A DNA stretch of 64,000 nucleotides from a virus. The notes under the pieces are model-generated. The model was not told the origin of the DNA, made no database searches, and saw only the letters and a program-made list of their open reading frames with translations. The stretch lies in IMG/VR virus record IMGVR_UViG_3300045988_138996, positions 64,001-128,000 of that record. One strand, 5' to 3'. Made by a program: the position numbers and the translations under genes. Of this stretch, positions 19,127 to 55,400 are shown piece by piece; within the stretch, counting starts at the first letter, position 1; every line of letters begins with the position of its first letter.

Positions 19127-19160
19127 TATTCTTAACGATTTGTTAATTGAATGAGTAATT

Positions 19161-19190: not shown

Positions 19191-19209
19191 ATATACAAGA
19201 GGTATTTTA

Positions 19210-19830: not shown

Positions 19831-19841
19831 GAAGGAAGATT

Positions 19842-22107: not shown

Positions 22108-22108
22108 T

Positions 22109-28531: not shown

Positions 28532-28560
28532 TTGACAATAATTAATATCACCATTATAAT
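28532..28560 (+). promoter_or_regulatory. consensus sigma70 promoter for tnpB
   Basis: TTGACA (28532-28537), exactly 17 nt, TATAAT (28555-28560). Then gaaagga and ATG 28590. Confidence 0.65.
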
Positions 28561-28589
28561 ATTCTTATAAACAAGAAAGGATATTATAT

Positions 28590-35446: not shown

Positions 35447-38400
35447 ATGGTAGATTACTTAAAAAATGGCAGTGATAATGATTCTGCCTTCGAAGGTATA
35501 TCTAATCTAGTTGATGCAGCAGCGGTCGCCGGCACTATTGTCGGCACCGCTTTTTTGCTATCTAGAACAAAACAAGGTGCAAAATTTTTATCGGAAGTCG
35601 ATCCGATTATCGGTAAGATGTCTGATCGTATTGCTAGTATTAGCGCAGACGGTAGTAATCGTTTATCGATTAGCGAATCTATTCGTGGCATATCTCATAT
35701 CGATCAGTTTAGAAAAATAGACGAAGCATTTGCTATTAATAATACGAGCAACGTAGGTTTATTTCGTAATCTTGCCGATGCAGCTTACGATGCTGCCGAT
35801 TGGGAAGAGCGTGAACTAGGTCGACAATATCAAGCTAAAATATTTGGAGATATTGGCGACGCATTAAAAACACAAGGTATTCAAGACGGACAAGTGCAAT
35901 CTCTTATGGAGTTTGTTAGTAGTCGTTCTACATCGACAGTCATCGATAAAAATTCTGGTAAATTACAAGAAAGTTTTATTGCCGACGTTGAAAATCATTG
36001 GCATGATTTCTTAGAAGAAAAAGATGCTAAATTTAATGAGACAGTCGATCAGTCTATTCAAGCCTTACAAAATATTTCTAATCAGACATTCGACACGTTT
36101 AGTGATTTTAAATCATTAGATGAAAATATTATAAGAGCTCGTGAAGCACGTCAAGATTTTATTCAAGAAATTAATAGAAGTGCTCAAGAGGCATTAAAAA
36201 AACAAAAGAATGATATTACGTATCATACGATTGGTGACGTATTAGATAAAGATGAACTAAATCCAGAATTCGATTTTATTGTTCATGAAAAAGGTCAGAT
36301 GGCTCCTCTTGACGGGAGGACTGTATCCGATCGTTTATATGCACAAAATGACGATATCGTTACGCAAACTCTTGATACGATTAGACAATTAAGCGCTACA
36401 AAAGATGGTTATTATGTTGAAGGTCAAAAATTAAATACGCCTAATATTAATAAAATAATAGGTGGAGCTAAAGATTTATGGCACGAGACATTACCATACG
36501 CATTATCACATGCTGCAGATTTTAAAAATGTCGACAACTTAAAAGTCGAATATTTAAATAAATATGACTTTAAAGGCGTATTGGGCGACATCGTCGGCAA
36601 AGATAGTATCGTTCAAAGAATTGGCAATCGATTGTTTGAATTAAAATCTGACGGTACTCGTAATGAATTAGATACGAGTGATATGCGTTTTGTTCATGAA
36701 GATTCGTATGTCATTAAAACATCTAAAGACTTTTCTAATTATGGAAAAGTTAATTTTGATAATGGCAAGCAAAGAATCTTTGGAGAGACAAGTCGTAAAC
36801 GTACGTCTGATGTTTGGGGTAATAACTATCATACATATCTAAATAAAGATATAAACGAAATTGCAAATCATCCTGAAGAAAAAGCGATGATGGGTATTCG
36901 TAATCATAGTTTTAAACGTAGTATCGATTCATTAGATATTAAAGTAAAGCTAGACGATAAACTTCGATCTGAATTACTAAAGGCATCTGAAGATAATCCT
37001 GAATTAAGATATAAAATAGAAAGTATGCTCGATGTTATCGACGCTAAAACAGAGTCAGAAAAACGTAGAGTATTAAGGGATATCTCGACAGAAGGTACTA
37101 AATCATCTGAATTTCAACGGTTACAATCAGCAGCTATTCGTGGCCGTTCTATTAAACCTAAACTAATCGATGATTCTACATCTATTACACAAAAAACATT
37201 ATATGCTAAATTAAATAAATCACAGTCTATTGATGAAGCAGCTATTAATGAAATAATGGCATCACTTCCTGCTGATAGAGATAAAGCATTAGCATTTATT
37301 AATAAATTAAATGTACCAGAAACTGTTAAGTTAAATTTAAGAGATCGATATAATGTCGAACAGTTAAAAATTAGAACTAACTTAAATGAAATTACTGGCG
37401 AAAATCATGTCGATGCAACTGGTAAAGATTTAAGTATTGAAGACGCCAAGAGGATTCAGAATGAAATCGTAAGCAATCCTGAATTACAAAGAACATTAAA
37501 TCGTTATTTAGGATCAGGTAAAGATTATAAAGCTCGTTATGAATCTAAAAAAAGTTCATCTCGCTTAATAGCAATTAATAAAGGATTTGACTTAAAAGGT
37601 ATTATGTCAGACCTAAATAAGATGAACTATAATGGCATTAATAATCGTATAGGTCAAGGTCTTCGAGGTATGTTTTCCAATACAAACCTCGATCATTTTG
37701 CGTTTAGTTCTATCTTTGATAATAATGTAAACTTGCCGACAGCAAAACATCATGGACGTGATTTATCGATTGGTGGCAGCTTATTATATAAGATGCCAGA
37801 ACGTCTTAATGAAGGCTTAAATAATGGCTTCATAGACCAAGCTCTTGGTTTTGTTCATCCAATATTTGGCGAACGATTATCAGCTTATTTTAAAACCGGA
37901 TTAAGTCTTGGTTTTCATGAAGGCGATACGAGAAGTTTTGCGCAATTAAGTTATAACTTATTATTTAAACGTGTATTACCAGCATCAATTGCGTTAACTC
38001 AATTAGATTGGGCTAACGATACATTCGGAATTAATAAAAACTTCCAAATTGGCTTAGCTAATATGGATTTAGGTTTTAGAAAATTCACGGATGCTACCGG
38101 CTTAACAGATGTATTTAAGTTAGCTAAAATGGCTAACCCTGCCGCTCAATATATTAGTGGTGATTATCGTCCTTATCAGTCTTATGAAGAACGTTTAGAT
38201 TATTATCAAAACGGTAAGGATCCTATTAGATCTGGACGTTATTGGGTATGGGGTTCTTCAAATGAATTTCGTGGTTCTAGTATTTCATATTGGGAAGATA
38301 ATAGTTTAAAATTAGCACAATCTGATTATTATAATAAATCAGTATATGGTGGCTATTGGTCTAAATGGGCACATAGTCCTATTCCGACATTAACAAATCC

Positions 38401-41400
38401 TTTCTCTCCATTAGTATATGCTTTTAACCCATACTGGTTAGAAGAAAAACATATGGAGGATCGCCCATATCCATTATCAGCTCCTTTATTTGAACAAGGT
38501 ACATTACAAAGTTTAGTATTAAATCCAACGCTTGGCGAAATTATTAAACCACAACGTCGTTATCATGAAGATCGTATGTGGTTTGGTAAAGACGTTAAAG
38601 CTATTATGTACCAAATGAATCAGAAAATTCAACAAACTGCCGATGAAGATAGTCGTTATATTATTTTCCAAAATGGTCGTTTGGGCGTATATGATTTTAG
38701 AGCATTTGGTCATCCGACAGATACAGAATATGTACAAGGTCAAGAACAAGAATATACTGGACAAGCTCCGGCGTTTGCATCGGCTAGAGATTATTCTAAT
38801 TATATTAATAGTGATGGTACGATAGATGCATCGGCATATGCTAGTTTGCAACCAATTTCTCCTGGTGCAGGTGCTGCCGTATCAGCAATGAATAGTGCTA
38901 TTCAATCAGGTAGTTCTCCTTATACGAATGCTTCGGGTATGTATATTCAACAACGTATACGTCGTACACGAAGCAATAAAGGCACTGTTCAAGAGATGCT
39001 CGATAATGCCGACATGTATAATAACTTGATGAATTCGAGTGGTGGTCGTAGTTATCTCGATGAATTAATGACGACATCTCGTTTGTTAACTGGTATTTAT
39101 GGTTATGCAGCATCATCAGTATTTGGTCGAGATGAATCTAAGTTTATTGCCGATGCTGGCGATATTAATTCGTTTACTCGGAGATTCTGGGATTCTGGTA
39201 TCGGCGGTGTCGGCGGTGAACAAATGGAAATTATTCGTCGTTTCTTGCCAGAATATTCAAGACGACGTCGTATTAATCCATTAATGAATAAAATGGCTGA
39301 AGACCATCCATGGCTTCCAGAAAAATTCTATACAGGTGATCCTTTTAGTTCCTTACCTATGGGTGAAGCTCGTTTACCTGGTGAAGGTTATGAAGCTATT
39401 AATCAATTACATCCAGATCAGTTTGCTTCCGATGGATATGGTGCTATCGATCGTTATAAAATATTAGCCGATATTGCTCCGAATAGTGCTGAGTATAAAT
39501 ACTGGAAACAAATCGTCAAGATGATGAATAATGACGAGGCGAAGAAAGTATTAAAAGATACCGAAGAAATGGTTAAACATCAAGGAAAGAAACATGATTT
39601 CTTTGATTATAAATTCTTAGGCAAAACTACGACAGCTCTCGATGGACATATCGAACAAATATTATCGAACGGTAAATTTAAGTTAGCAGGCGACGATAAT
39701 TTATATCAAATTGCCGGCATTAAATTTAAAGATAATGGTTATATGTCTAAGAATCAGTTAAAACAAGTATTAACTGAAGGTTCTCATGTAACGTTACGTA
39801 TTGACGATGAAGAGCATAATCCAGATATTAATGCACCGCAAGCTCCTAGAAAAGCTGCCGTATTTTTAGATGGTGAAAATATTTCAGATACATTACGGCA
39901 AGTTGGTTTAGCTGATTATGATATGGAAGATACTTCAGCAGCAGGTGCTTATGCGAACTATGGATTAGTCGGAAGATTATTTGGTACGGCTGCCGAAATC
40001 ATAGCGCATGCTCCAATTCCGATTATTCACTCACAATTGATGCGTGTTAATAGCCCATTAGAAGAATATCGCTCCGATCAATTATATGGTACAGGATTTC
40101 AATCTTGGGATAGTATGTTAGCTTCATTTATATATCCGACATTCGAACAAGCTAAAACAGATTTTATGCGAGATGTAATATCTGATTCATTGTGGCGATT
40201 CTATAAAGGATATGAATCTGGCGCTTTAACAGAAAATATTAGTAAGCGTTCGACAACGATATTAAAAACTATTGCGACGTATAGTAATGGCACTGCCTTA
40301 GCAGGGGAAATTGCTGGACGTTTTACATTTACTGGCGCTAATTCATCGACTCGTCGTGATCAACTTGCTAATGCAGGTCGACATATCGGTAATATCTATT
40401 CGATGGTAACTTCACTTCAAGATCCTATGTATGCTGCTTATGCATGGGGACGAATGGGCTGGGATTCTTCTAAAGTATATGATTTATGGAAAGATGTCGG
40501 AAATGTAAATTTCGATTCTGTTCTCGATTATGCTGAGCATATGAATATACTTAAACCAGCAAAACTATTAAGTGAAGAATCAGGTGTAGCAGTCGATGTA
40601 ATTCAAGCTGCTCGTAAATTTAAATTAGGACGTATTTCTCAGGCAATAGCATTTGCTGCTGCCGGTACGGCTTTAGCTGTCGGTGAAGATAATCCGCTTA
40701 CTCGATTATTCGGTAAAGAATCTCATGTATATACTCCTGACACAGTAAAAGAACGTTGGGATACTGAAGATTATTTCGATAGATTACGTTATATTAAATA
40801 TATGGCATTATACGAAGCAGCTAAAGAAAAAGCCAAATCAGAAGAAGGCGTCGATGTCGATAAATTATATAAACATCAAGAAACTCTTCGTGCCGAGATG
40901 AATGGTGATGTAAGCATAACCGATATGATGTCGGCAATTCTTACATCTGGTAAACCTGCCGATGATCCGATAGCTCAATGGGTTCAAAAAACATTCGGTC
41001 GTTTAAGCGACGATATGACGACATTAGTAGCTGGCAAATATACTGAACAAGCGATTATGTTCCATCAAGTTGCAGAGTCAACTGTATATGCTTTAAATAA
41101 AGATAGCGAATATTCTGATATTATTCGTGCTTTACCAAATACGGAAAAAGAATATTTCGTAGAATTTGCTAAAGTTACAGACGAACGTCGTCGTAGAGAA
41201 ATTCTTAGAAACGTATCGCCATCATTAGCAAAAGCTTTAAAGCTTGTTTGGTATCAAGAAGATACAGATACAGAATCGAACGAATCATTCTTTGAACGTC
41301 ATAATTTGCCAGATCCATTATGGGCTGGTTGGGATGCGTCTACTAATTTAGATAATATTAAAGCAAAAGTTATTTATAACGAAGGTATGCAATATGCCGA

Positions 41401-41650
41401 CTACGGTATTTATTCTTCTTCATACGAAGATCCTGAAGTTATAAATGCTCCGAATATAGATAATATTCATGACGGTAGTAATCCGTTATCAGTTCGTGTA
41501 AATTTAAATACTGTATTAAGTGGTATTGGTTTAACAGATAAACGTATTCAAGTTAATCCAACACAAGATGAAGGTGTCATCGATGTTGTATCTAATGTCA
41601 CTGCAGTATTAGGATATAAAATAGAAAAAGCACTTTCAATTTTTAGTTAA
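35447..41650 (+). CDS. giant tail-module protein 1 (2067 aa; tape-measure candidate by position)
   Basis: An uninterrupted 6.2-kb ORF directly after the chaperone-position genes. N-terminal hydrophobic segment AAAVAGTIVGTAFLL and a later AIAFAAAGTALAVG. No enzymatic motif recognised. Confidence 0.45.
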   Translation: MVDYLKNGSDNDSAFEGISNLVDAAAVAGTIVGTAFLLSRTKQGAKFLSEVDPIIGKMSDRIASISADGSNRLSISESIRGISHIDQFRKIDEAFAINNTSNVGLFRNLADAAYDAADWEERELGRQYQAKIFGDIGDALKTQGIQDGQVQSLMEFVSSRSTSTVIDKNSGKLQESFIADVENHWHDFLEEKDAKFNETVDQSIQALQNISNQTFDTFSDFKSLDENIIRAREARQDFIQEINRSAQEALKKQKNDITYHTIGDVLDKDELNPEFDFIVHEKGQMAPLDGRTVSDRLYAQNDDIVTQTLDTIRQLSATKDGYYVEGQKLNTPNINKIIGGAKDLWHETLPYALSHAADFKNVDNLKVEYLNKYDFKGVLGDIVGKDSIVQRIGNRLFELKSDGTRNELDTSDMRFVHEDSYVIKTSKDFSNYGKVNFDNGKQRIFGETSRKRTSDVWGNNYHTYLNKDINEIANHPEEKAMMGIRNHSFKRSIDSLDIKVKLDDKLRSELLKASEDNPELRYKIESMLDVIDAKTESEKRRVLRDISTEGTKSSEFQRLQSAAIRGRSIKPKLIDDSTSITQKTLYAKLNKSQSIDEAAINEIMASLPADRDKALAFINKLNVPETVKLNLRDRYNVEQLKIRTNLNEITGENHVDATGKDLSIEDAKRIQNEIVSNPELQRTLNRYLGSGKDYKARYESKKSSSRLIAINKGFDLKGIMSDLNKMNYNGINNRIGQGLRGMFSNTNLDHFAFSSIFDNNVNLPTAKHHGRDLSIGGSLLYKMPERLNEGLNNGFIDQALGFVHPIFGERLSAYFKTGLSLGFHEGDTRSFAQLSYNLLFKRVLPASIALTQLDWANDTFGINKNFQIGLANMDLGFRKFTDATGLTDVFKLAKMANPAAQYISGDYRPYQSYEERLDYYQNGKDPIRSGRYWVWGSSNEFRGSSISYWEDNSLKLAQSDYYNKSVYGGYWSKWAHSPIPTLTNPFSPLVYAFNPYWLEEKHMEDRPYPLSAPLFEQGTLQSLVLNPTLGEIIKPQRRYHEDRMWFGKDVKAIMYQMNQKIQQTADEDSRYIIFQNGRLGVYDFRAFGHPTDTEYVQGQEQEYTGQAPAFASARDYSNYINSDGTIDASAYASLQPISPGAGAAVSAMNSAIQSGSSPYTNASGMYIQQRIRRTRSNKGTVQEMLDNADMYNNLMNSSGGRSYLDELMTTSRLLTGIYGYAASSVFGRDESKFIADAGDINSFTRRFWDSGIGGVGGEQMEIIRRFLPEYSRRRRINPLMNKMAEDHPWLPEKFYTGDPFSSLPMGEARLPGEGYEAINQLHPDQFASDGYGAIDRYKILADIAPNSAEYKYWKQIVKMMNNDEAKKVLKDTEEMVKHQGKKHDFFDYKFLGKTTTALDGHIEQILSNGKFKLAGDDNLYQIAGIKFKDNGYMSKNQLKQVLTEGSHVTLRIDDEEHNPDINAPQAPRKAAVFLDGENISDTLRQVGLADYDMEDTSAAGAYANYGLVGRLFGTAAEIIAHAPIPIIHSQLMRVNSPLEEYRSDQLYGTGFQSWDSMLASFIYPTFEQAKTDFMRDVISDSLWRFYKGYESGALTENISKRSTTILKTIATYSNGTALAGEIAGRFTFTGANSSTRRDQLANAGRHIGNIYSMVTSLQDPMYAAYAWGRMGWDSSKVYDLWKDVGNVNFDSVLDYAEHMNILKPAKLLSEESGVAVDVIQAARKFKLGRISQAIAFAAAGTALAVGEDNPLTRLFGKESHVYTPDTVKERWDTEDYFDRLRYIKYMALYEAAKEKAKSEEGVDVDKLYKHQETLRAEMNGDVSITDMMSAILTSGKPADDPIAQWVQKTFGRLSDDMTTLVAGKYTEQAIMFHQVAESTVYALNKDSEYSDIIRALPNTEKEYFVEFAKVTDERRRREILRNVSPSLAKALKLVWYQEDTDTESNESFFERHNLPDPLWAGWDASTNLDNIKAKVIYNEGMQYADYGIYSSSYEDPEVINAPNIDNIHDGSNPLSVRVNLNTVLSGIGLTDKRIQVNPTQDEGVIDVVSNVTAVLGYKIEKALSIFS

Positions 41651-41667: not shown

Positions 41668-44600
41668 ATGGCTTACGATAGTTTTATTATAAATTCGGCA
41701 TATAAACAAAGATCGTTTACGATGGCTGGATTTGATACGCTTTCTTCGTTAAATACGATGTTAAGCAACGTTCGTCTCGAAAGACGAAAGCATACCGAAT
41801 TACTTTTAAACACTACGACAACTATGCCAGTTGCCCTTAACGGTATGGCTAATAAAGAATATGTATTAGACGACAAAGCATATATTTTTGATATCGAAAC
41901 ATTGCCATCTATTAAAGTAGGCAATGAACAAATACCTGATATTATGTGGCAGTATACGGCTCGCCGTGAAGGTGAAACATATAATATGTTCTCTGGTATC
42001 GATGAAAAAGCAGAAACGGCTTATCGTAATTTATTTTTAAAACCAGATTTTAAATATGAAGAATTAAGCCGAAGTGAAAAGGTAGTTGCCGATACGTTAG
42101 CTCGTATCGGTAAAAACTACCGTGAAGGTTCCGGTAGTATTCCTGAAGCATTATCTCCATTAGGATATAAAGATTATGCCGACATGAAAAAATATCAAGA
42201 GCTAATCGAAAACGGTATTAATGCATTATCTAAAGAAGGCGATGCTACTCATTTAATAGCTAAAGAAATTGTCGATCATATTCATAAAGATACGACTCTC
42301 GTTACTTACAACGGTAAAGCATTTGACGTTAATATGACATCGCAACAAATAGCTCGTGATACCGGCATCGATAAAAAAGTTCGTGGTCTTGCTATTAATA
42401 AACTAAGTAAGGCTAATCATTATGATCCGTATCGAGAAATTCGTACGGCATATCAATTAAATCCACAATCAATGAAAGAAGCATATCGAGAACATATTCT
42501 TGGTAGCGATATTGCTAAAGAACGATTAATCGGCGAATTTACTGGTTGGTCTAACAAACAAACAAGCTTTGGTTTGGCAGTTGGTCTTGATGTTAATGCT
42601 GCGCATAGTGCTATCGAGGATACTGGCGTATTCGAAAATTTAATGAAAAATGCTGGCTTTAGAGCATTTATGGCTAAAGCTATCGAGATTAATAATTCAC
42701 CAAAGAATAAAGTTCAGTATAAAGTAAGTGCTGGTGCCACAATATTCAATACATCTTCATTGTGGAATCGTGATCGCGGCATTTTAATGTTTCAACAATC
42801 AGAAGATGGCGGTTATGAATTTCCACAATTTTCTGCTCGTGCTAATGATAACGGTGTTTTTACTGCTTATAATAATGCTCCGATTGTAACTAATTCTGCA
42901 TATAATGTAAAATTTGTCGGTCAACTTGATCGTAATGATTCTTCTCTCGGAGCTTTTGCTTATGAGCATGCAAATGAACTAGGCTTAAAAGGTAATGATG
43001 ATATTCATTATATTGCATTAGAAGAAGCAAGCGGACGTGGTCCTGTTCGTTATATTATGGGTTCTAAAAAAGTATTAGAAGATACGTTAACCGACAGCTT
43101 TAGAGTATTAAGCAACACCTCAGCAAATGGTGAAACGACATATAACTTTGAGCAAATTGTATCGGCTGCCAATTCTTTAGGCATCCCGATGGGACGACCT
43201 GACAATACGATGGATAAAGTTATAGCTGCATCAGCTAAACGTCAATCGTCTGCTAATGCTTGGGACAAAATTGAATCTGGAGCTTTTAATCGTGAAGCAT
43301 ATGTAACTGGCCCGTTAATTAAAAACTTTGCAGAAAATGAACGAGGCATGGCCCTTAATATTTTAGGCGATGCATTAGAACTTGGTACCGACGTAGCGAC
43401 TGCAGCTTCAGCTCGTAAAGCTGGAGATACTGGCGGTATTATTACCGACGACTTTATGAAACGTACCGAACAATTGTTCGGTATTGCTAAACAACATTAT
43501 GGTATCGATTCTAATGATCCTAAGAGTAAGATGTTCTCTGTTGCCGGCGTTCAAAAAATTATTGAAAATATTAATAATGAAGATGTATTATCTATGGTTA
43601 ATATGGTACAGACAGAAGCAGCTGCTCTTCCTGGCGTAAAAGATTATCACAAAACTGTAGCTATGAATTTATTAGCCAAAGAATATCATAAAGTATATGA
43701 TGAATTGCATCCAGAATATGGATACCGTGCATCGATATCTGATAAGATGTTAGATGGTATATCTAAAGATATGCATTTATCTGGTGGCGCTTTTTCATTT
43801 GATGTTCGACAAGAAAATGCTGAGAAGTCTATCGGTTCTATTAAGAATACGATGAAAAGATTACTCACACGACCTGGTCGTGAATCTGTTTCTCGCTCTG
43901 ATTATGTTAAAGGTTATTCTGTATTAGTTAAAAATATTTTCGGAGCGAAGAGTAGACAAGCTCAAGGCTTCGAAAATTTAGTCGAACGTCAAGGTTCTGA
44001 TATGACAGATTTTGCAGAATACATTTTTAGAAATGTACAGCAATTGCGAATCGATACATATCGAGACGGCAAGAAACATCATGAGATGTTTAGAACAAGT
44101 TCGACACCAAGCAAAGATGTTTCTTTGTTTAAAGATGACGACGAATTAGTTAATCGTTTACGTGCCAGCGTTATAAAGAATCTAAAAGCACTGTCTTCGA
44201 CGCCAGAAGATTCTGTTAATAGTATATATAACTATTTAATGGGTAATATTACTCGTAAAGATTTCGATATCTTTTCTAATCGTAATAATTATGCTGGTGC
44301 ATTATATGATCAAGTTTCTGATCATATGAAATCATTTGCTAATCAATTAGAATTCTTGGCTCATCAAAATCAACAAGATATTTTAATTAAAGATGGCAGA
44401 CTTATGATGGGCAAGGGGAATACATTCCGTGATATCACAGGAAATATTCCTTTACTAAAAAGATTAGATAGTGTTCCAGTTCTTGCCTTTGGCAATACTA
44501 ATATTGCTATTAATCCGATATTAAATGTTGTTGAGGGCGCTAAACCAAATGAAAAATTTGTGCAAATTGGTATCAAAGGCTTATCTACATATGATCATTT

Positions 44601-47600
44601 AGAAAATAGTGTTAAGTATACACTAGAAAATAATAAAAATCTTGGACAAATGTCACCTGTCGAAGCACTATTCGAAACATTAAGTCGATTAAAAAAAGAT
44701 TTAAATATTACATACTCTAAAGAACCAATCGAAGGAAAAACTCCGGCATTATTGCAAGGGTATGGCGGCGTATTAGATTCTTCATTCCAATTAGACACGT
44801 CTGGTATAAAAGAAGATTTTAAATTTTTATATCAATCTGGTTATTTAACAGATGAACATATAAAAGCTTCTGGCATTGCTAGTGATTGGAATCATATTAA
44901 TTTCCAAGATAACGAATCTCTTCAAAATGAATTTATTAAAAAATACATTTATAAAGATTATAGCGGAAAAGGTTCTGTATTTAATGTCGAAAAAGGCGAA
45001 GCATATCGTGGTATCGAATCACGAAGAGCTTTAGAAAGTTTAATCTTTGCTAAAGACTCTAGTGGTATGACACCAATTGAAAATGCATTACAAAATGTTA
45101 ATAGTGCTGGTAAATTTCATGAATTACAACGTATCGGTAAAGACGAATACAAATTAAGACGTATTGATCGTAGCGGTACAGAATTTGCACAAAGTATTGA
45201 ATTAATTCCAGAAGTGGCAACACAAAAAAATGCTGTTCATAATACAATGCCAATAGCTGGTATAAAAGATAATGCATCGGGACCAAATATAAATTTTAGA
45301 GCTCGTAACGATACAGCTCGTTCTTATAATAAGTCTATGGCTAATGCTACGATGCTTACACCTGAAGATGTTAAAGATGTATTACGACAAGCAGATTTGC
45401 CAGATAATTATGAAGAAAATCATAATATATTGAATTATAAATATAATGAAACTGGCGGCAAATATGTTTTTAATGGTACTAATGTTGTAATTAATGGACG
45501 TCTCGAAGAAGGTCAAACTGTTGCTGGTGAAAAAGAAAAAATCTTCAATATAATGAAGAAGAAAATTGAAAAGACGTATAATCGTAAAATGACGCAAGAA
45601 GAAATTGATCATTTAAAATCAATGATTGATTTGAATACATTCGATTCTTTAAACGAAGGTTCTGCTCTTATTAGAACAGGCGTAATGGATGCTCTTGCTA
45701 CAAGTAATACATCACCTGGAGGTACATCATTTAATTTAACAGAACAATCTTTAAATAAAGAATTCCTCGAAGAAAATATGCCAATATATCGAGATGTTGA
45801 TGGAACGTTACGATATAAAGATTCGCAAAAGATGACAAGTATTGGTCGGAATAAAAAGTTTAATGTATTTGCTGAATCAAATGCATATGGTGATTTACCT
45901 AAAATATCTCGAACAGAAATGTTTGGTAAAATAAACTTTTATTCTGATCATGGTACTCGTAAATTAACTAAAGAAGAAGTACAAGATATTCTCGATAAAA
46001 TTGGCACAGTCGATGCTAGTTATGATTATGAAACGTTAGTTAGAACGTTAAAAACTAATGGTGTCACTGTCATGATGGATTATAAACCTGTCGGCAGTCA
46101 AGCAACTAAGTTATTTGCCGAAAGTGATAAATTAACAGCTGCTAGTCTTAATACTAGAGTTGGTCAATATGATAAAAAACTAGCTTCGATATTTAAAAAA
46201 GCTGGCTTTGGAAAAGCCATGGAAAAACAATTAAATTGGGAATTTTTATCTAATATGATTTTATGGCATGATAAGTTAGCCGACGTATTTGAAACAAAAG
46301 ATAATAAACCTGATATCGTAAAACTTCGTGGAGAATTATCAAGACATTATGGCTCATTAGAAGCTGGTGTAAAAGCTATTCGCAAAGAGCGTGATCTTAT
46401 GGATAAGGCATTAGGCGAATATCTTGGTGTTGAACATTGGTCGACAGCTACTGGTGCTACTGAAGCAGCTAAACGTAAAGACGTATTCCGACTAACTAAT
46501 CGTGTATTAAATGACTTAATAGAAGGTCTCGATGAATCTAATCGAGGCGAAGTATTATCGAGAGTTGCTAAGACATTAAAAGAAAAAGGTACGTTTAAAT
46601 TTATCGACGATAGTAATCTTGAATATAATTTAAAAAATGGTAAAGTTGAATTTTCCGACTATTTAAAAGATATTGGCACATATGAAAATGAAACTGGCAA
46701 AATTGTAAGTAAAAACTGGGATCATGTTATTAATGATATTAAGTCTGCATTAAAAGAAGACGAAATTAAAAAAATCGATAAAGATTATCTTAACGAAAAA
46801 AATAAGTACGAAGAAAGAATAAGTTATTTACAATTTAGTAAAAACTATGTTCACCAAGCACAAGTTGCGACATTAGATTCTGTAAGTGCTGAGCAGTTAA
46901 AACGTCTTATGTTAAATAGTAAAAGTGTAGAAGACGCTGCTTTGCTATTTGATAAGAATAGTAAATATTATACTCATATTGCTGAGCGTGGCGGCATGAT
47001 TACTGTCGGTGACGATATTTTAGATGCATTTACTCATACGCGATATTCTCGACTAAAACGAAAAGAAGAACAAAAATTAGCTCATAGTAATTCGTTCGAA
47101 CCAGGATCTCTCGAAGACATTATTAATAAAGAATATGCTAGTAAGAATATTATAGCTTCTGAAGACCATATAAAAGAAGTTGCTTCTTATGAACAACAAT
47201 TAGCATTAGCTAAACGAAATGGTGTAAGTAATTCTGGCAGTCAAGCAACAGCTATGGATGAATTTGATCGAATATTAAAATCTAAAGATGGTAACGTCCA
47301 AAAAGCTGCTCTTAATGAATTAAATAACAAGATTAATATTGCCGACATTAAATTCGATGATAAAGGTAACATTATTAATGTCGGACATTTGCGTGGCAAT
47401 ATTTCTGTCGAAGATGGCAAATATCATTTTAATTATGATCTCCATTTAGGTAGAACATATGGCAACCAACAATTGAGTGATGCGCAAACAGCTTATGTAA
47501 ATCAAACAGAAGAAATGCTTCATTATATTAATGCTGGCGATTATGAAAAAGCTAGATTGGCTCAGAATAAATTAGCTGATGCTAAACAACGAGTTAACGA

Positions 47601-49377
47601 TGCAACTTCCGACGCATTAAAACTTAATAGTGATTTGACTAAATCTGTAAAAGCAATAACAGCTGGTTATCGTATTAGTTCTGAATCGATGCGTGTCGAC
47701 GATGCTTCTGATTTTATTCAGTCAAGAAAATATATTAATGGCATGACCGTAGCAGATTTACAAAAAAGAGATTATACACCTGCTGTTGCTATTGTCGGAC
47801 AAGAACGATTAGAACAATTAGGCTTATTAGATAGTTCGTTATCTGAAGCAGAAAAGGCCACACGGTTAAAACAAATTCGTGAAGAAGGCGTTACAATTAT
47901 GTTAGACCGTCAACCACATAATTATGCTAAATCTATGGCGTTTGCTAAAGTATATTATGATCCTTCAATTGCTGACAATGCTATACGAACTAATACGGCA
48001 TTTAATATGTTAGCGAAAGCTGACCATGATGGTGATAAAGTATATTTAACAAAAGTTCTCGAAAACAAAATGAGTAATGGTACACCTATTACAGCTAACG
48101 ATATGTTAGCAGCCGATATGCAATATCGTCGAGACGTCTTAGATGTTACGCCTAAAAATATAGCTAATGAAGCTGCTGATCGTTTAAAAACATATATGCC
48201 TAAAGACGTTGAATTTGAACAAGGTACAATTGCTGATAATATTGTTCGTAACAGATTAACAACTGCTGCCGGTGAACCTTATAATGCTATTAAAGGTTTA
48301 GAACGAATGGTCGGTGATTTAAAAATCAACGAAGAAGTAACATTAAGTGGTGGTAAAGGTATATCTAAAACTACAAATGCTAAACAATTAGTTGCCGAAG
48401 TTGCATCTGGTATGCATGAAACATTCTTGTCTCCTAAGAACTTTAGTCAAGAATTCGTATCGAAAATTACATCGCTTCCATCTGCTATTCAAGATGCGTT
48501 GCAATATCAAAAAGGGGACACTGCCGGATCTATTATTCGTCGAGTATCTGATACATTAACTAGCGACGATGAAATCTGGAACGAATCTTTTGGATCTATG
48601 AAGAAGAACACGACATTGTATAAGAACATGGTTTCTGATATAATAGAGAATGAGGGTTTAACAAGCGACGCAGCTGAAGCTAAAGCCGCTGGAATAGTTC
48701 GTGAACAGTTCCAAAAAACAATGGAAAACGTGGCACAAGCTGCCGACGAAAAAGGTTGGACATCTGGGCAAGCTGTTCGCGAGCTTAGAATGTTCGACGC
48801 TAGAGCATTAAGAAGTGATAGTGATGTTCAAATTAAACAAGTACAAGAACAGCAAAAAGCTATGGAAGCTGCACAAGAAGCAACTAAAAATGCTCCGATG
48901 AACCAAGTCGAACAAAAAGTTACCGATATGCAAACGAATGAAGCTGTTATGAATAAAGGTTTAGAAGAACGTGTTTCTAAATTAAGAAATAGTGCGTTTA
49001 AAAAACTCGATAAAGTTAAATCAAATCGTTCTAAAGCCGTTCTCGGTGCTCTTGCCGTTGCCGCAGGTTCTGTATTAGTTGCAGGTTATGGTTCACAATC
49101 TCCGGTACCAGATGTTGATAATACAGCATCTCAAAATATGGGACAAGCTAATACATCAGCTCGATTAGTAATACCACAAAAAGGACAAGCTAACGGCGGT
49201 TATATAATTAATGTAGCAACTTCTACAAATCAAGATCCTCAAGCTGCTATTGCAGCTTTAAATAATGCTCCTGCTTTTGCTGGCGGTGGCAGTGCTACCG
49301 TTACGACAAGAGTAACGAGTCAATATGAAGATATGAATGCTAACGATATTGCTAATTATCTTGATAGCGTATTTTAA
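41668..49377 (+). CDS. giant protein 2 (2569 aa): N-terminal DEDDh exonuclease-like domain plus C-terminal beta-prime-like DPBB with DxDGD (single-chain RNA polymerase candidate)
   Basis: Exo I FDIET (D at 41890-41892). Exo II YNGKAFDVNM (D at 42325-42327). Exo III HSAIED (42604-42621). The segment IMLDRQPHNYAKSMAFAKVYYDP...FNMLAKADHDGDKVYL (DHDGD at 48022-48036) parallels the beta-prime NRxPsLH..s...//NADFDGD. Hydrophobic AVLGALAVAAGSVLVAGYG near the C-terminus. Confidence 0.6.
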   Translation: MAYDSFIINSAYKQRSFTMAGFDTLSSLNTMLSNVRLERRKHTELLLNTTTTMPVALNGMANKEYVLDDKAYIFDIETLPSIKVGNEQIPDIMWQYTARREGETYNMFSGIDEKAETAYRNLFLKPDFKYEELSRSEKVVADTLARIGKNYREGSGSIPEALSPLGYKDYADMKKYQELIENGINALSKEGDATHLIAKEIVDHIHKDTTLVTYNGKAFDVNMTSQQIARDTGIDKKVRGLAINKLSKANHYDPYREIRTAYQLNPQSMKEAYREHILGSDIAKERLIGEFTGWSNKQTSFGLAVGLDVNAAHSAIEDTGVFENLMKNAGFRAFMAKAIEINNSPKNKVQYKVSAGATIFNTSSLWNRDRGILMFQQSEDGGYEFPQFSARANDNGVFTAYNNAPIVTNSAYNVKFVGQLDRNDSSLGAFAYEHANELGLKGNDDIHYIALEEASGRGPVRYIMGSKKVLEDTLTDSFRVLSNTSANGETTYNFEQIVSAANSLGIPMGRPDNTMDKVIAASAKRQSSANAWDKIESGAFNREAYVTGPLIKNFAENERGMALNILGDALELGTDVATAASARKAGDTGGIITDDFMKRTEQLFGIAKQHYGIDSNDPKSKMFSVAGVQKIIENINNEDVLSMVNMVQTEAAALPGVKDYHKTVAMNLLAKEYHKVYDELHPEYGYRASISDKMLDGISKDMHLSGGAFSFDVRQENAEKSIGSIKNTMKRLLTRPGRESVSRSDYVKGYSVLVKNIFGAKSRQAQGFENLVERQGSDMTDFAEYIFRNVQQLRIDTYRDGKKHHEMFRTSSTPSKDVSLFKDDDELVNRLRASVIKNLKALSSTPEDSVNSIYNYLMGNITRKDFDIFSNRNNYAGALYDQVSDHMKSFANQLEFLAHQNQQDILIKDGRLMMGKGNTFRDITGNIPLLKRLDSVPVLAFGNTNIAINPILNVVEGAKPNEKFVQIGIKGLSTYDHLENSVKYTLENNKNLGQMSPVEALFETLSRLKKDLNITYSKEPIEGKTPALLQGYGGVLDSSFQLDTSGIKEDFKFLYQSGYLTDEHIKASGIASDWNHINFQDNESLQNEFIKKYIYKDYSGKGSVFNVEKGEAYRGIESRRALESLIFAKDSSGMTPIENALQNVNSAGKFHELQRIGKDEYKLRRIDRSGTEFAQSIELIPEVATQKNAVHNTMPIAGIKDNASGPNINFRARNDTARSYNKSMANATMLTPEDVKDVLRQADLPDNYEENHNILNYKYNETGGKYVFNGTNVVINGRLEEGQTVAGEKEKIFNIMKKKIEKTYNRKMTQEEIDHLKSMIDLNTFDSLNEGSALIRTGVMDALATSNTSPGGTSFNLTEQSLNKEFLEENMPIYRDVDGTLRYKDSQKMTSIGRNKKFNVFAESNAYGDLPKISRTEMFGKINFYSDHGTRKLTKEEVQDILDKIGTVDASYDYETLVRTLKTNGVTVMMDYKPVGSQATKLFAESDKLTAASLNTRVGQYDKKLASIFKKAGFGKAMEKQLNWEFLSNMILWHDKLADVFETKDNKPDIVKLRGELSRHYGSLEAGVKAIRKERDLMDKALGEYLGVEHWSTATGATEAAKRKDVFRLTNRVLNDLIEGLDESNRGEVLSRVAKTLKEKGTFKFIDDSNLEYNLKNGKVEFSDYLKDIGTYENETGKIVSKNWDHVINDIKSALKEDEIKKIDKDYLNEKNKYEERISYLQFSKNYVHQAQVATLDSVSAEQLKRLMLNSKSVEDAALLFDKNSKYYTHIAERGGMITVGDDILDAFTHTRYSRLKRKEEQKLAHSNSFEPGSLEDIINKEYASKNIIASEDHIKEVASYEQQLALAKRNGVSNSGSQATAMDEFDRILKSKDGNVQKAALNELNNKINIADIKFDDKGNIINVGHLRGNISVEDGKYHFNYDLHLGRTYGNQQLSDAQTAYVNQTEEMLHYINAGDYEKARLAQNKLADAKQRVNDATSDALKLNSDLTKSVKAITAGYRISSESMRVDDASDFIQSRKYINGMTVADLQKRDYTPAVAIVGQERLEQLGLLDSSLSEAEKATRLKQIREEGVTIMLDRQPHNYAKSMAFAKVYYDPSIADNAIRTNTAFNMLAKADHDGDKVYLTKVLENKMSNGTPITANDMLAADMQYRRDVLDVTPKNIANEAADRLKTYMPKDVEFEQGTIADNIVRNRLTTAAGEPYNAIKGLERMVGDLKINEEVTLSGGKGISKTTNAKQLVAEVASGMHETFLSPKNFSQEFVSKITSLPSAIQDALQYQKGDTAGSIIRRVSDTLTSDDEIWNESFGSMKKNTTLYKNMVSDIIENEGLTSDAAEAKAAGIVREQFQKTMENVAQAADEKGWTSGQAVRELRMFDARALRSDSDVQIKQVQEQQKAMEAAQEATKNAPMNQVEQKVTDMQTNEAVMNKGLEERVSKLRNSAFKKLDKVKSNRSKAVLGALAVAAGSVLVAGYGSQSPVPDVDNTASQNMGQANTSARLVIPQKGQANGGYIINVATSTNQDPQAAIAALNNAPAFAGGGSATVTTRVTSQYEDMNANDIANYLDSVF

Positions 49378-49402: not shown

Positions 49403-52400
49403 ATGGCGGAAGAACAAAAAAAGACTGAAGAACAAAAACCAGCTTCAACAAAAGAAGTCATGGATGATGCTAAGAAACCTAAAGAACCTAAAAAAGGTTC
49501 GATCGAACATTTGAACGATATCATTAAAGATACTCAAATGAGTCTTCCAGAAATTTCTGATTTTGAAGCAGGTGCTATCGATACACGCATATATGAAGAA
49601 CTTGCTAAACAAATGGGAAGTGATTTAGATGCGGCAGTTTTCTATCGTGAAGATCCGCCGTTAGAACATGTTGGTGTCGATAAAGTGAGAGGGCTGGCTA
49701 TGGTCAGCCTTCCTCCTTCTGCTTTCAGAATTAAGGAAGAGGATTTGCATGCTGGCTTTGTCGATGGCGATACATTATATGCTGATCTGCGAAAAGCCAA
49801 TGTAAAAGATCCAGAATTATTAGCCTTTTTAACTAAAGGTCAACAAAATATGAGAGCTTGGCTCGCTCAAGAAAAAACTAATTCTGAAGATGTATATGAT
49901 ATTAATAATGTAAAAGATGAAAACTATAGTCTCGATTATGACATGGGTTTTCGTTTTTTATTTTATGACGCACCTGAAGTATATCACTGGTCTGTTATTT
50001 ATGCGACCGATGTTATTAAAACTACATATGGCGAAGCTGTTAATAAATATAATGCATTCGTTACGAAGGCACATGATGTTAGTACAGTTGGCTTTGGTAA
50101 CAAATGGGCTCGGAATTTAGATTCTGACGAATGTACAATTGCTCAAGTAGCAGAATTTGATAATCGTTGGATTGAAGTAAATGAAAAACTAACGACAAAA
50201 CGATTCGGCGGATTATATCCATACGATAATTCTAAGAAGATAAATGGACGTGTTCCTGTATTTGGTTTATCAGCTGATGGTACAGAATATTCTTTATTAG
50301 AAACAGCATATGCTGCAGCTAATGAAGTTGTACATATGATTAAAACAGCTAAAGAAGTTCGTGCTGTTATCGATATTAATGGCTCATCTAAACAAGATCA
50401 GACTACGTCTTATCCTAAAAACTTTATGAGTTTTCCTGGTGATTCTTTATTAGCTAACTATGTTAATACTATTAATCAACGATTATTGAGTTTCCAAGAT
50501 CCGACAATTTTTAAAGAGACTGGTATTAATATGTATGGTCTCGAACATTATCGTCGTAATCTTGCTGTTATTTATGTTAAACAAGGCGAAAGTTGGATTA
50601 ACTTAAATAAATATATTATTTCCAAGAATCATCATGTTTCAATTTTAAAATATTCTGATTTTACAAATCCTAATTTGAAACCATGGTCTTATGAGTTCGA
50701 TAGAAAAGTATGGGCCGATGCTGTATGGAATATAACAAATCAATTAGATAAACGTCATGAAATACAAAATAAAGCATTCGGTACACAAAACATTACATCG
50801 GGATTAACATCGATTGCTGATTGGACATGTACATTAGGTGACGTAACATTATTTGTACCACCTATTTCGATTAGTACAGTTACACAAGCGAACTCTCAAA
50901 ATATTCCGTTAATGCGTGCTAAAGGTTCAGCTAATATAGAAAATGCTAAGCCAGATCGATTACTTCAATTAGAATTGTATTTTAATGAAGATCGTGGTAT
51001 CAATGGACAACCTGTTACGGTTGACACAAATTCTTCGGACAAAAAGAAACAGATAACATATTATATGAATGGTTTTAGATCGTTGTTGTCTGAATTTCAT
51101 TTCGTTCCGTATATGCCTATTGAAAATAAGTATATTAATGAAACGTTAGATATCGATGCTGTATGTTTTGAAGCTATATCGGTAGCAACAGTACCAAATT
51201 ATCCTAAGCTATTAAAAGTAACGTTACTATTAAGAGAATTTGATTATCAAGCTTTTATGCCTCAAGTTCCTAAACACAGAGAAATTGAAGGCGGCGAAGT
51301 CGTAAAATATCGTAATTATTTTTCTAAGACAATTAATTATGATTTATTGCGCTGGTATTATCAACGCCCATTATTATTGGGCAATGAATTGCATGATAAA
51401 CAGTATCCAATATTCTCGAAGGATTTTATGAAGCGGACATTGTTCGCTAATCGATCTGCATTGATGCCAGTCGATACATTAAATCCGAGAATTGATTTTT
51501 ATGTGCCAGACGAAGCTAAGTTAATTAAATTAGAAAAGATTCGTCAAACATATACTAAGACTAATAAAAAAACACCAAATGCTTATCGCCCATCTCCTGC
51601 CGATAAAGCATTGTTTAGTGAAGCTAATAGAGTATTTACAACATTAAAAGGTAAATACTTTGCAAATGAAATTAAAAATTTCTCTTCTAATAAAACTTCG
51701 CAATACGAATTCTTATCAGACGCTGGCAATAAGCTTACTAAATATTTAAATCAATTTAATATTCAGGCGTATTATGATATCGTAGAACCAAATATCGATG
51801 TTATAAATAAACTAAAAGATGCTGGTAGTTTTATATTAACAGGTGGCGATGCAAAACCAACTGTCGATTTTAATAATCCTAAGAGTACTCGTTTAATTCT
51901 TCATATTAAACCAACGACACAATATAATTCATTAGAAGATTCATTATTATTACGTCAACAATTTGCTTCGACGTTAACAAATGCTGGTTCTTCTAATATG
52001 GCAGAAAATGCTCAGAATTTAGATAATGGGCATCCTGTCGATACAGATGTATATAATAGTATTTTTAAAAACGAAGAATTTTCATTAAGTCTTATTGTTA
52101 AAGAAAATGACGGAAAATTATCTTTAGATTATTATCCATATGATACGGATTCTAAATTCTTAGAATATTGTGCATCTCAATTTAGTCGACTCGGTACTAA
52201 TGATGATACATATAATGCATTGTCTGGTAATGAACAGCAGTATGAAGAATATGAAGATTCTGAATTCGAACGATTAACGTCTATCGATTATCGATTATAT
52301 TTAAAAGATGTATTAGTGCAAGGCTTAACAGCTAACTTCTCTAATACATATGCTAATATGTCTGTCGACACTCATCGAGGGCAAGCACCTCAATATATGG

Positions 52401-55400
52401 GCGGTCAAGATGCAACATTAACATTCTCTGTTATGACATATGACCAAGCTACTGTCGATGCATTCGATAAGATTCCTAAGATTATTGCATATTTTAAAAA
52501 GAAATATCCAAATGCATTACCTTCGTACCCATTCAGAATTGAATCTGAATTTACTAAATTAATTGGTGTGTACGAAGTTATTGTCGATCAAGTAGCTATT
52601 TCAACTGTTCCTAATTATCCTGGATTGTTCCAAATTAAAGTATCGTTACGCCAAACAGATAGAACGTTGCGCAATCGATTTGCTGTATATAAACAATTCT
52701 CTGTCGAAAATTATGCATCTAATTTAGCAACAGCACAAAAAGCTGCACAAGCTGCTCTTGGATATTTCGATATCGATGCTAATTTATCTAAAGCTGAATT
52801 ATATCCAGATTTACAATTACCAACAATTAAAGAACTCGGTGAAATGGGTTTTGAATTTATTCGCTATAAAAACCCAGGTAATCAAGTATTTGTCGATCCT
52901 GATTTTTATTTCTGCTATCATGAAACACTATTCTCTGAACTATTAAGAGATATAGTTCTTATGGATAGTAAAATGTTACAGTTGTATAAAGAAGCAGATG
53001 AAAAAGGTAAGCCTTTAGATAAAACTGTCGAAATGACAGCTTTCGATGATACTGGACGTGGTGTCGAGTATTCTCGATCAGGTGGTATGAATATAGCATC
53101 TAATGGCGGATTAGCATTAGCGCTTGACAAAAAAGAATGGGATTTAACAACTCAAAAAATTAACGATCTTAAAAAAGAAGAAAATGATATGCGATTAAGA
53201 CTCGTTAAACATGGCGTCAATACTGGTCAATGGAAAATCGGTAAAAATGCTTCAGTATCATTCATGGAACCATATTATTCCTGGATGTATTATCATTTAA
53301 AAGATGATGTCGATTGGAATAACACAGGTAAAAAAGAAGCTGAAAAATCTGTTAAAGATGCAAAAAGAATTGATCAGACAAAAAAAGATTTAGAAGCTGT
53401 TGGTGGTTTTGCTCCGACATCTGGCATGGACGATAAACAAAAGAAAGATTATCAGGATCGAAAAGATAAAGGAACAGAAAATGCATTAAAATCTGTTCTT
53501 GTTGATTCTGTCGATACGTTTATGAACATTGCTGACGATGCTTTAAAATTCTTAAGCACGATTGCTATCGAAGAAGAAAATCAAGATAAAGTATTACTTC
53601 AACATTTTTACAACTTAATTGTCGAAACTAAGTCAGTTCAACAAAGTACATTCTCTGATTGGCAAGATAAAATTAATAGTACATTAAATAAATTCGTAGC
53701 CGCTGCAGTTTTGTCTGGTGTCGATAGTGATTTAAGTACTGAAAAACAACAAGAACTTGGCAAACAGTTTATAGCATTTACAGCCACAAAAAAATCTGCT
53801 AACGATTCAGTATTAGATCAAGCTGCTAAAAATCAACAAGCTTATAGTATGATGTTGGCTGGAGTAGATCCTAACGGGAGCCCTTCTAATAATGATGCTT
53901 TGTCTAAAAATAAATTTAATTTACGTTCGACAAAATATTTATATGAACAAGCTAAATTAAGTTATGACTTTGACAAAGATAAAGATTTCTGGCGTTACGG
54001 CTCTATTGTTGAGATGGGCGTCTTTGGTATTCCATGTTTTACTGAAGAAGAATTTAAATCTAATCCATTATTAAATTTAATGAATGTAGACTTTGCGGCT
54101 CGTAAGAAAAAATTTACCGATAAAAAATATACATTCTTAGATTCTGATCATTATTACTTTATCGATCCATATTATCAAACTTCTGATTATAGCGAAACAA
54201 TGGCATATATGAAAGGTTGTATGACCGATTATTATTATGCTAAAAATGCATTCCTTCGTAATATGTTATTCTGGATGTGTACATTAATTAAGAATAATAT
54301 TATGCCAAATTACATGACAGATATTTTATTTAATAATGCTGATGGCGAAGTGTCTGCATATGAATATATGAAGGATATGGATTTATCTAAAGACATTCAA
54401 GAAAAGAATGTTAATACGATGAAAAACTTCGTTAAAGATAATCAAGAAAAGTTTGTAAATGGTAAATTATTTGTATGCTATTCTTTAACAGCTCTTGCTA
54501 AAGATAATGATTTCATCAAGAAAATTACGACTCGCAATTATAATTCTTTAAATGCTACGACACATAAAGTATTAACACCAGCATTAAGTGTAACAGCGCC
54601 ATTAGAAGATAGTGATATGATTCTTCGTCGCTTATTATTTGCATTAGTGCCTGCCGGTATTATTGAGAAAGTCGAAGAGCTTGGTGTCGATATTAGTAAT
54701 AATAACCCGATTAGTCAAATTGAACGTGATTATTCTCAAAAATTAGAGCTTGAAGCAAACTCTAAAGCAAACTTGCCAAGACGTGTTCGTGATTCATTCC
54801 TCGATATGATTCAAACAGATGTTCGAGGCAGAATGCTTAGAGGCTTCCCAACATTCCAAGTTATGTTTATCGACGAAGGATTAACATCTGGATTCTGGAA
54901 AATGCACGATAGTTTTTATAGTACGAATGCTATTAGTTCTATACAAGTTGTTAAATCTAAAAATATTGCGGCTGATACAGCCACAATTCAGATTAATAAC
55001 GCATTCCAAAATATTCTTGCCGAATACGATTCAGATGGCGATAATGATAACTACGTACAACAATTACAAAATGGCTTAGCAGCATTAAATAACTGGTATG
55101 ATAGTATATTTAACCCTAGAACATTTGTTCGTAACGCACAACAAAAACAAGATATGATTCCAGAACGAGCATCTATTAAATTAGTAGCCGGTGCTAGAAT
55201 TCATATTCGTATGGGTTATTCAGCTGATGCGGCAAAGTTACCTCCGATGTTTAACGGTATGATTACCGAGATTATTGGTGGCGATGTTGTTAATATAACA
55301 GCGCAAAGTGATGGTATTGAATTATCAAATCCTATCCGTGAAGATAACTATGGCGATCGTATTAAAAACAGAGGCGTACATTATTTCCAAGATAGTCCAT

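Follow-up and report, generated by a model that had tools for sequence, protein, structure and literature searches.

The open reading frame (ORF) at positions 41668-49377 of a 64,000-nucleotide stretch of viral DNA (positions 64,001 to 128,000 of IMG/VR record IMGVR_UViG_3300045988_138996; hereafter the window) encodes giant 2, the middle one of three consecutive giant proteins in the structural module of a jumbo myovirus. The favoured reading, to which a probability of roughly 0.55 is assigned, is that giant 2 is a virion-associated, ejected RNA polymerase (RNAP) fused to an exonuclease in a phage resembling 0305phi8-36, and that it is probably injected with the DNA as the enzyme that starts transcription. 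Two parts of the protein carry this reading: (i) a catalytic barrel of the type found in the beta-prime subunit of multisubunit RNAPs and (ii) an N-terminal exonuclease domain of the DEDDh (DnaQ-like) type. Both had been proposed in an initial annotation from motifs in this single sequence. Such motifs are only suggestive by themselves, since 5000 shuffles of giant 2 yield the pattern [RK]xP-x(20-100)-DxDxD in 14% of cases, its DxDGD version in 1.2%, and an ordered DEDDh set in 0.5%. Conservation among distant homologs is taken as the decisive evidence, and it is what gives the motifs their meaning.

The probable beta-prime-type double-psi beta-barrel (DPBB) includes the segment VTIMLDRQPHNY...KADHDGDKVYL (residues 2075-2127), in which DRQPHNY...KADHDGDK occupies residues 2080-2124 and the metal-binding triad D2119/D2121/D2123 is encoded at nt 48022-48036. 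The first half of the barrel is assigned to YTPAVAIVGQERLEQLGL and is followed by a short helical insert and by a second half that reads DR(2081)QP(2083)HNY..S(2089)...KAD(2119)HD(2121)GD(2123)K. An early hand alignment, which had set SESMRVDD against beta-prime as the first half, gave way to YTPAVAIVGQERLEQLGL once gp96 of Thermus phage P23-45 had been compared by hhalign and E. coli beta-prime by eye. The arrangement R2081xP2083-x35-D2119xD2121GD2123 is invariant across the family, and the triad is the predicted Mg2+ site of two-barrel RNA polymerases.

Profile searches lead to the same enzymes. When the family-core profile was searched against all PDB sequences, the top match was the phiKZ RNAP protein gp55 (E=0.058), which is the beta-prime-like subunit of the phiKZ non-virion RNAP. 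With a broader profile, RNAP largest subunits account for 13 of the 18 PDB matches at E<10 (phiKZ, AR9, Rpb1 of RNA polymerase II, and RPB1 of African swine fever virus (ASFV) and poxviruses), and these 13 align over the same 56-68 residues, RxP element included, with the Asp triad in register. In Pfam, the family consensus matches PF00623 (RNA_pol_Rpb1_2) with E=0.093 over 97 residues, and DUF5917 scores slightly better (E=0.084). Comparison of hidden Markov models (HMMs) by hhalign against an alignment of 45 proteobacterial beta-prime sequences places the best local match at E. coli residues 420-470 (LLNRAPTLH...NADFDGDQM), with P=0.015 when 11 family members are used and P=0.0059 when 13 are used; the signal grows with family diversity and therefore behaves as true homology should. 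The catalytic block also passes the filter [RK]xP-x(20-100)-DxDxD, which Chaban et al. (2024; PMC10770324) applied to identify two-barrel RNAPs.

The fold searches, which the initial annotation had proposed as a check on the polymerase region, support its assignment of a beta-prime barrel near residue 2119. The AlphaFold model built from 7 sequences has a predicted local distance difference test (pLDDT) score of 62-77 over residues ~2020-2120 and of 70-90 in many blocks of residues 1290-1700. In a Foldseek search of this model against the PDB, the best 41 matches are all RNAP largest subunits (E values down to 6e-3, probability up to 0.91), including bacterial beta-prime, archaeal A', a plastid RNAP chain, and RNA polymerase I, with ~288 aligned columns; the N-domain of p97, a canonical DPBB, comes after RNAP in the list with a probability of 0.99. 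Matches in BFVD include LEF-9 of baculoviruses and nudiviruses, ASFV RPB1, a mimivirus RNAP subunit, and a segment of a crAss-like protein (weak). Profile, HMM-HMM, and fold searches are individually weak, independent tests, and their convergence makes a beta-prime-type barrel in giant 2 very probable. Beyond the barrel, the bridge helix and trigger loop may, speculatively, be matched by the conserved blocks AAGExYNxxK and HETFLSPKN; the pLDDT lies below 50 beyond residue ~2127, and the region of these blocks gave no alignment to known bridge helices.

The exonuclease domain, with the barrel about 2000 residues downstream of it, is almost certainly present, and the DEDDh assignment is secure at the sequence level. 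The ordered motifs read in the initial annotation stand where they had been placed: Exo I FDIET at residues 74-78 (nt 41887-41901), Exo II YNGKAFDV at residues 214-221 (nt 42307-42330), and Exo III HSAIED at residues 313-318 (nt 42604-42621). Giant 2 matches Pfam PF13482 (RNase_H_2) with E=3.2e-6 and 27.6 bits, above the gathering cut-off of 22; this is a family of DEDD exonucleases akin to the PolB exonuclease, within the RNase H-like Pfam clan. The family profile has its best PDB matches among DEDDh-type exonucleases of ~190 aa, which contain the three motifs in order (E=0.033), and the exonuclease domains of PolB rank next. The pairs D75/E77, N215/D220, and H313/D318 are invariant in eight divergent members, and the motifs Exo I (DxET), Exo II ([YH]NxxxFD), and Exo III (Hx4D) do not vary wherever family members have the domain. 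Giant 2 thus shares with DnaQ-like DEDDh exonucleases the ordered DxE, Nx3FD, and Hx4D motifs and differs from them in its unusually long insert of ~135 aa between Exo I and Exo II and in its fusion to a giant of the virion module.

The homologs of giant 2 form a small family of giant proteins of 1781-3287 aa, with identities down to about 15-20%, and their phage contigs, if long enough for a judgement, measure 116-236 kb. A word-indexed protein search returned 52 clusters, 50 of which are 87-100% identical to giant 2, the other two being P0051 (64%) and P0052 (28%); a repeat with the family profile returned the same 52 proteins. Clusters hold up to 423 member sequences, and dozens of the contigs are ~230 kb long. 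From 1.84 billion representatives, searched exhaustively with HMMER, only four informative distant relatives emerged: P0053 (3203 aa), P0057 (2709 aa), and two fragments. Scans of IMG/VR and metagenomes provided more lineages, of 1781-3287 aa, two of which came from a narrower metagenome scan. The cassette of three giants is kept in distant relatives wherever the flanks are readable.

Eight full-length members, which share about 15-25% identity, have only 33 invariant positions ahead of the C-terminal module. These include six DEDDh residues, D75, E77, T78, N215, F219, and D220, to which a better N-terminal alignment adds H313 and D318, and ten positions in the catalytic block (G2074, R2081, P2083, Y2086, S2089, Y2096, D2119, D2121, G2122, and D2123). 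The motif DxD[GE]D occurs exactly once in every member, ~80% along the protein, and always in the context G-x6-R-x-P-x2-Y-x2-S ... [KN][AL]-D-x-D-G-D. Purifying selection on the catalytic residues at <20% overall identity argues for activity. One lineage, L020 (IMGVR_UViG_3300045974_000102, 116 kb; 6257-11602), encodes a protein of only 1781 aa between giants of 2053 and 2741 aa. It has no DEDDh domain, an N-terminal hydrophobic segment standing in its place, and keeps RYP..NADHDGD and the C-terminal module; the exonuclease is therefore regarded as a modular addition.

A two-barrel polymerase requires a second, beta-type barrel, which gives two basic residues (PMC7824862). That residues ~1300-2300 form a complete two-barrel enzyme in cis is considered somewhat more likely than not. 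The initial annotation had pointed to FGKINFYSDHGTRK near residue 1421 as a beta-like motif; this string is present at residues 1420-1433 (nt 45925-45966) but is a poor candidate, as its homologs do not keep it: P0051, at 64% identity, has Q in place of K1421, and most members have lost the HG. The family invariants within residues ~1325-1500 are E1330, G1379, K1481 (nt 46108-46110), and K1488 (nt 46129-46131), and the two lysines, together with E1330, G1379, and R1575, are better candidates for the second barrel. The AlphaFold model has a pLDDT of 57-84 over most of residues ~1410-1470 and contains beta-strands at 1418-1426 and 1466-1474, which belong to an alpha/beta region. There are also motif-level echoes of the beta subunit, NEGSA resembling FEDSI and DxDGxL..GDxIF resembling LDESGIV..GDILVGK, a likeness that we read by inference and that is no evidence of membership. 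The earlier proposal of a single-chain two-barrel polymerase thus keeps its beta-prime-type half; its other half was recovered by none of the searches.

The position of the gene in a tail module, also part of the initial annotation, is confirmed by the sheath, tube, and chaperone genes upstream and by the hub/lysin giant downstream, as is the hydrophobic helix near the C-terminus, of which every family member has one. The window represents the structural module of an uncultured ~230-kb phage. Among cultured phages, the closest to it are Bacillus phage 0305phi8-36, Moorella phage MTATph1, and several Bacillus jumbo phages, and the gene order of the window is colinear with ORF139-147 of 0305phi8-36. 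The middle slot of the latter is filled by gp146, a protein that mass spectrometry has verified in virions and whose annotation reads "hypothetical tape measure protein"; giant 2 sits in this slot and has globular enzymatic domains. The chaperone-like genes are directly followed by giant 1, not by giant 2.

Homology of giant 2 to gp146 was considered and rejected, as there is no detectable similarity outside the C-terminal module. The two proteins occupy the same slot between homologs of gp145 and gp147, have similar sizes (2537 aa for gp146 and 2569 aa for giant 2), and share a C-terminal transmembrane helix and GYxINV module (AGYEVNV in gp146, whose gene lies at 14624-22237 of 0305phi8-36; hhalign P=0.0027). 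Otherwise they have nothing in common, and gp146 contains neither a DxDxD nor a DEDD motif. No part of giant 2 is better conserved than this module, and because the module is common to two otherwise unrelated proteins, it is likely to serve in virion incorporation or anchoring. That the non-homologous gp146 fills this slot and ends in the same module further suggests that the slot is a swappable cargo position. Position and analogy make a virion association of giant 2 likely.

Virion-delivered RNAPs are found in N4-like and crAss-like phages, which are podoviruses, and as multisubunit enzymes in phiKZ-like jumbo phages; the virion RNAP (vRNAP) of N4 has a T7-like fold and is unrelated, and hence is a functional analogue only. 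Giant 2 resembles phi14:2 gp66 of the crAss-like phages and YonO of SPbeta in the concept of a phage RNAP, virion-delivered or phage-encoded, within one large polypeptide. It differs from gp66, YonO, and the N4 vRNAP in that none of them has an exonuclease. For phage 0305phi8-36 itself, a separate single-subunit RNAP of the YonO-like kind has been reported, encoded elsewhere in its genome (PMC7824862).

The closest analogue of giant 2 is P23-45 gp96, a virion RNAP fused to a tape measure that has been proposed to transcribe the first genes (Chaban et al. 2024, 2022 preprint; PMC10770324). In gp96, a protein of 5002 residues from an 84-kb siphovirus, the RNAP occupies residues ~327-1124 and is accompanied by a metallopeptidase and no exonuclease (PMC10770324). 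Both proteins are giants of the tail module with a catalytic DxDGD preceded by RxP and with one or more membrane segments in the same polypeptide, and both are proposed to be ejected through the tail and to transcribe the first genes. By eye, the first half of the catalytic barrel is colinear between the two (GRPIVPIVIGKEMAAKLGL...FRNP...DFDGD in gp96 and YTPAVAIVGQERLEQLGL...DRQP...DHDGD in giant 2). The RNAP is N-terminal in gp96, whereas the polymerase region of giant 2, a jumbo-myovirus protein with an exonuclease, spans residues ~1300-2300 of 2569. The relationship is best described as analogous architecture and not family membership.

Multisubunit beta-prime proteins, including phiKZ gp55 and the N-terminal portion of AR9 beta-prime, are the best matches of giant 2, with NRxPxxxxxS...[NK]ADxDGD in register. 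They differ from it in several respects: the match is limited to ~50-100 residues by sequence or ~290 columns by fold, and giant 2 lacks both a zinc ribbon and a bacterial-type helical insert, as well as any detectable beta partner. Moreover, its barrel sits inside a 2569-aa protein of the structural module.

In the favoured explanation, giant 2 would be made late in infection and would join the tail or ejection apparatus by way of its C-terminal module, in the slot of gp146. Sheath contraction would expel it, and its helix would engage the cytoplasmic membrane. Residues ~1300-2300 would act as a complete single-chain two-barrel RNAP in which the second barrel has its basic residues from the invariant K1481 and K1488, and this polymerase would transcribe the first phage genes as the DNA enters, with no need for the host RNAP. 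Such a role would mirror those of the tape-measure-fused vRNAP of P23-45 and of the vRNAPs known from crAss-like and N4-like phages. Working on the same substrate, the exonuclease may trim 3′ ends, either as proofreading or as rescue of backtracked transcripts, or may resect the DNA end to a single-stranded template. We infer the activity, the packaging, and the single-chain completeness of giant 2.

Several results weigh against this explanation. No RNAP match was obtained at E<1e-3 in either sequence or fold searches, and each line of evidence is sub-threshold when taken alone (best E 0.006-0.06). The AlphaFold models are poor overall, with a mean pLDDT of 45.8 for residues 1300-2340 modelled from 4 sequences and of 50.5 for the model from 7 sequences, and the TM-scores of the Foldseek matches are low. 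The second barrel was not recovered: a HMMER search of the PDB with a profile of residues 1340-1530 gave no match to RNAP beta, hhalign against a 45-sequence proteobacterial beta alignment was not significant with either the full length or a flap-removed minimal barrel, and hhalign against YonO and P23-45 gp96 found no second barrel. The family as a whole has no homology to gp96 detectable by hhalign (P>=0.3), and YonO aligns with giant 2 only over an 18-residue DxDGD stretch. RNA synthesis and DNA synthesis cannot be told apart from sequence. As L020 dispenses with the exonuclease, exonuclease and polymerase need not be coupled, and gp146, the virion protein of the corresponding slot, is non-homologous to giant 2 apart from its C-terminus.

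The missing second barrel bears on the possibility that giant 2 supplies only a beta-prime-like half whose beta-like partner acts in trans, as in the split RNAPs of phiKZ and AR9. The barrel is indeed nearer to multisubunit beta-prime (phiKZ gp55, AR9 beta-prime, and Rpb1) than to YonO or gp96, and a beta-type barrel was not detected in cis. However, the 64-kb window contains no other ORF with [RK]xP..DxDxD or RNAP-like features, giants 1 and 3 are devoid of RNAP features, and the invariant K1481/K1488, E1330, and R1575, which lie in a well-predicted upstream alpha/beta region, resemble a second barrel in cis; a split enzyme is therefore regarded as unlikely. A different chemistry, that of a two-barrel DNA polymerase or primase-polymerase (PolD-like) with a linked proofreading exonuclease for DNA end repair or replication, would account for the placement of a DEDDh exonuclease N-terminal to the polymerase, which is the hallmark order of proofreading DNA polymerases, and for the kinship of PF13482 to PolB exonuclease domains, which also appear among the PDB matches. 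Two-barrel enzymes can be DNA polymerases, as PolD illustrates (PMC10770324). This alternative is considered quite unlikely, because the sequence and fold matches are all RNA polymerases and none is PolD, more than 1000 residues separate the exonuclease from the polymerase, L020 lacks the exonuclease altogether, and the known phage two-barrel enzymes are all RNAPs.

Giant 2 might be encoded in the tail module and yet not be packaged, serving instead as a late intracellular polymerase/nuclease tethered to the membrane by its C-terminal helix, and the confinement of its likeness to the virion protein gp146 to the C-terminus would fit such a role. That very module is nevertheless common to gp146, the position in the cassette, between two homologs of verified virion proteins, is strictly conserved in all relatives, and the ORFs of at least 100 aa in the structural block, homing and mobile ones aside, match a structural PHROG, a structural counterpart in 0305phi8-36, or nothing. 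An unpackaged enzyme thus has little probability. Least probable is a cell-wall-acting DPBB of the RlpA, MltA-3D, or expansin type in a tape-measure-like ejection protein, with the DxDGD as a mere mimic. Peptidoglycan hydrolases are common in tail tape-measure and hub proteins, and a phage RlpA and several tape measure proteins are among the weak BFVD fold matches. In contrast, Pfam DPBB_1 and 3D are not matched even at E<=10, the profile matches are RNAP largest subunits over 56-68 residues with the RxP element, the ~288 Foldseek columns to beta-prime extend far beyond a bare barrel, and a lysin function is already present in giant 3. The reading of giant 2 as an ejected RNAP fused to an exonuclease is thus retained as the favoured one.

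Features of giant 2 and of its neighbours in the window (nucleotide positions of the window; residues refer to giant 2)
Feature	Position	Strand	Basis or identity
Sheath, 1010 aa	23838-26870	+	
Tube	30429-31679	+	
Tube paralog	31666-33384	+	
Short ORF without an assigned 0305phi8-36 counterpart	33406-34044	+	
Two ORFs at the chaperonin positions ORF143/144 of 0305phi8-36	34054-34632, 34632-35435	+	synteny
Giant 1, 2067 aa, homolog of virion protein gp145	35447..41650	+	blastp 3e-47
Giant 2, whole ORF, 2569 aa	41668..49377	+	open; identical to nr DAV32825.1
DEDDh (DnaQ-like) 3′-5′ exonuclease domain, N-terminal, residues ~60-335	41845..42672	+	Pfam PF13482, motif invariance, PDB profiles
Family-conserved part without a recognisable domain, residues ~336-1300	42673..45567	+	
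Putative second (beta-like) barrel region, residues ~1325-1500	45640..46167	+	invariants, motif resemblance
Mainly helical connector with invariant R1575, R1850, and G1917, residues ~1501-2029	46168..47754	+	
Probable beta-prime-type catalytic double-psi beta-barrel (DPBB-A), residues ~2030-2130	47755..48057	+	profile, HMM-HMM, and fold searches
Post-catalytic conserved blocks AAGExYNxxK (2200-2209) and HETFLSPKN (2250-2258)	48268..48441	+	conservation
Predicted transmembrane helix AVLGALAVAAGSVLVAGYG (2457-2475)	49036..49092	+	one in every family member
C-terminal module SQSPVPD...GGYIINV...NDIANYLDSVF	49093..49374	+	conservation; hhalign to gp146 C-terminus
Giant 3, 3176 aa, baseplate hub / cell-wall lysin, gp147 homolog	49403..58933	+	phrog_20474 8e-146

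Outside the exonuclease domain, which is the only feature returned by a Pfam scan of giant 2, standard searches with the single sequence are silent. Megablast and tblastn of giant 2 against 50,697 deposited phage genomes gave no match, and a 57-aa motif query against the deposited phage genomes returned only noise. Neither did phmmer against the PDB give a match, PHROGs hold no family for giant 2, and residues 336-1300 match nothing in Pfam, PHROG, or PDB-profile searches. The identical nr entry is titled "MAG TPA: hypothetical protein [Caudoviricetes sp.]". A clamp-like role for the helical connector would be a guess.

The gene order of the window begins with an intein-invaded terminase and continues with portal, protease, major capsid protein, sheath, the tube genes, short ORFs, and the three giants. 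The terminase large-subunit region (3783-10009) is heavily invaded by selfish elements: ORF 3783-5345 contains an intein (Intein_splicing 5.7e-26, plus LAGLIDADG) adjoining a Terminase_6N fragment, and three free-standing ORFs resemble homing endonucleases of the LAGLIDADG/helix-turn-helix type (5776-6726, 7284-8387, and 9035-10009). Between sheath and tube, the interval 27396-29678 harbors an HNH endonuclease (phrog_4645, 1e-34) and a transposase (phrog_506, 2e-116). The first tube gene matches phrog_9206, which is labelled "major head protein"; the RefSeq record of 0305phi8-36 carries the same mislabel, with "tail tube" in its note, and the head label is thus an annotation trap for automated pipelines.

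Giant 3 matches gp147 in tblastn and blastp searches at 1e-50 to 1e-72 (1e-56 among them) and is far longer than gp147 (1903 aa). It combines hub-like and lysin-like regions with ~1800 N-terminal residues, within which blastp aligns gp147 only at 478-658 and 969-1175. The five ORFs of 119-352 aa downstream of giant 3 have no significant family match.

Fusions between an RNAP and a protein of the tail or ejection apparatus are already known as a concept. The remark in the initial annotation that it was aware of no such tail-module enzyme is therefore outdated, since P23-45 gp96 precedes it; the other half of its novelty claim, the exonuclease fusion, holds in that no description was found. Literature searches aimed at such a fusion or at tail-module RNAPs, and the supplementary tables of PMC10770324, gave no description of the exonuclease fusion, of the contractile-tail jumbo context, or of the giant 2 family. 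What appears to be new in giant 2 is the combination of a divergent putative RNAP family nearer to multisubunit beta-prime, its occurrence in contractile-tailed jumbo phages, the C-terminal placement of the polymerase, and the DEDDh exonuclease. That giant 2 is the first cellular-type two-barrel polymerase covalently coupled to a DEDDh exonuclease and delivered by a contractile tail on a C-terminal cargo-carrier module, to which different jumbo phages attach differing enzymes, is a doubtful, more far-reaching proposal. Under it, the protein would be either an RNAP with a built-in nuclease for 3′–5′ editing or template resection, or a phage two-barrel DNA polymerase.

Virion-delivered RNAPs let phages begin transcription without the host enzyme. 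If the favoured reading of giant 2 is true, the solution of fusing a polymerase to an ejection or tail protein would be extended in three respects: it would be used by jumbo phages with contractile tails in the 0305phi8-36 lineage, it would involve a new and very divergent RNAP family that looks closer to beta-prime than to YonO/QDE-1-type enzymes, and it would include a proofreading-type exonuclease, a combination not seen before. The lineage is not rare among public assemblies, and D2119/D2121/D2123, D75/E77, and K1481/K1488 offer direct handles for biochemistry. The most interesting by-product may be the view of the middle giant gene as a swappable cargo slot, which is a testable idea on how enzymes are loaded into phage tails.

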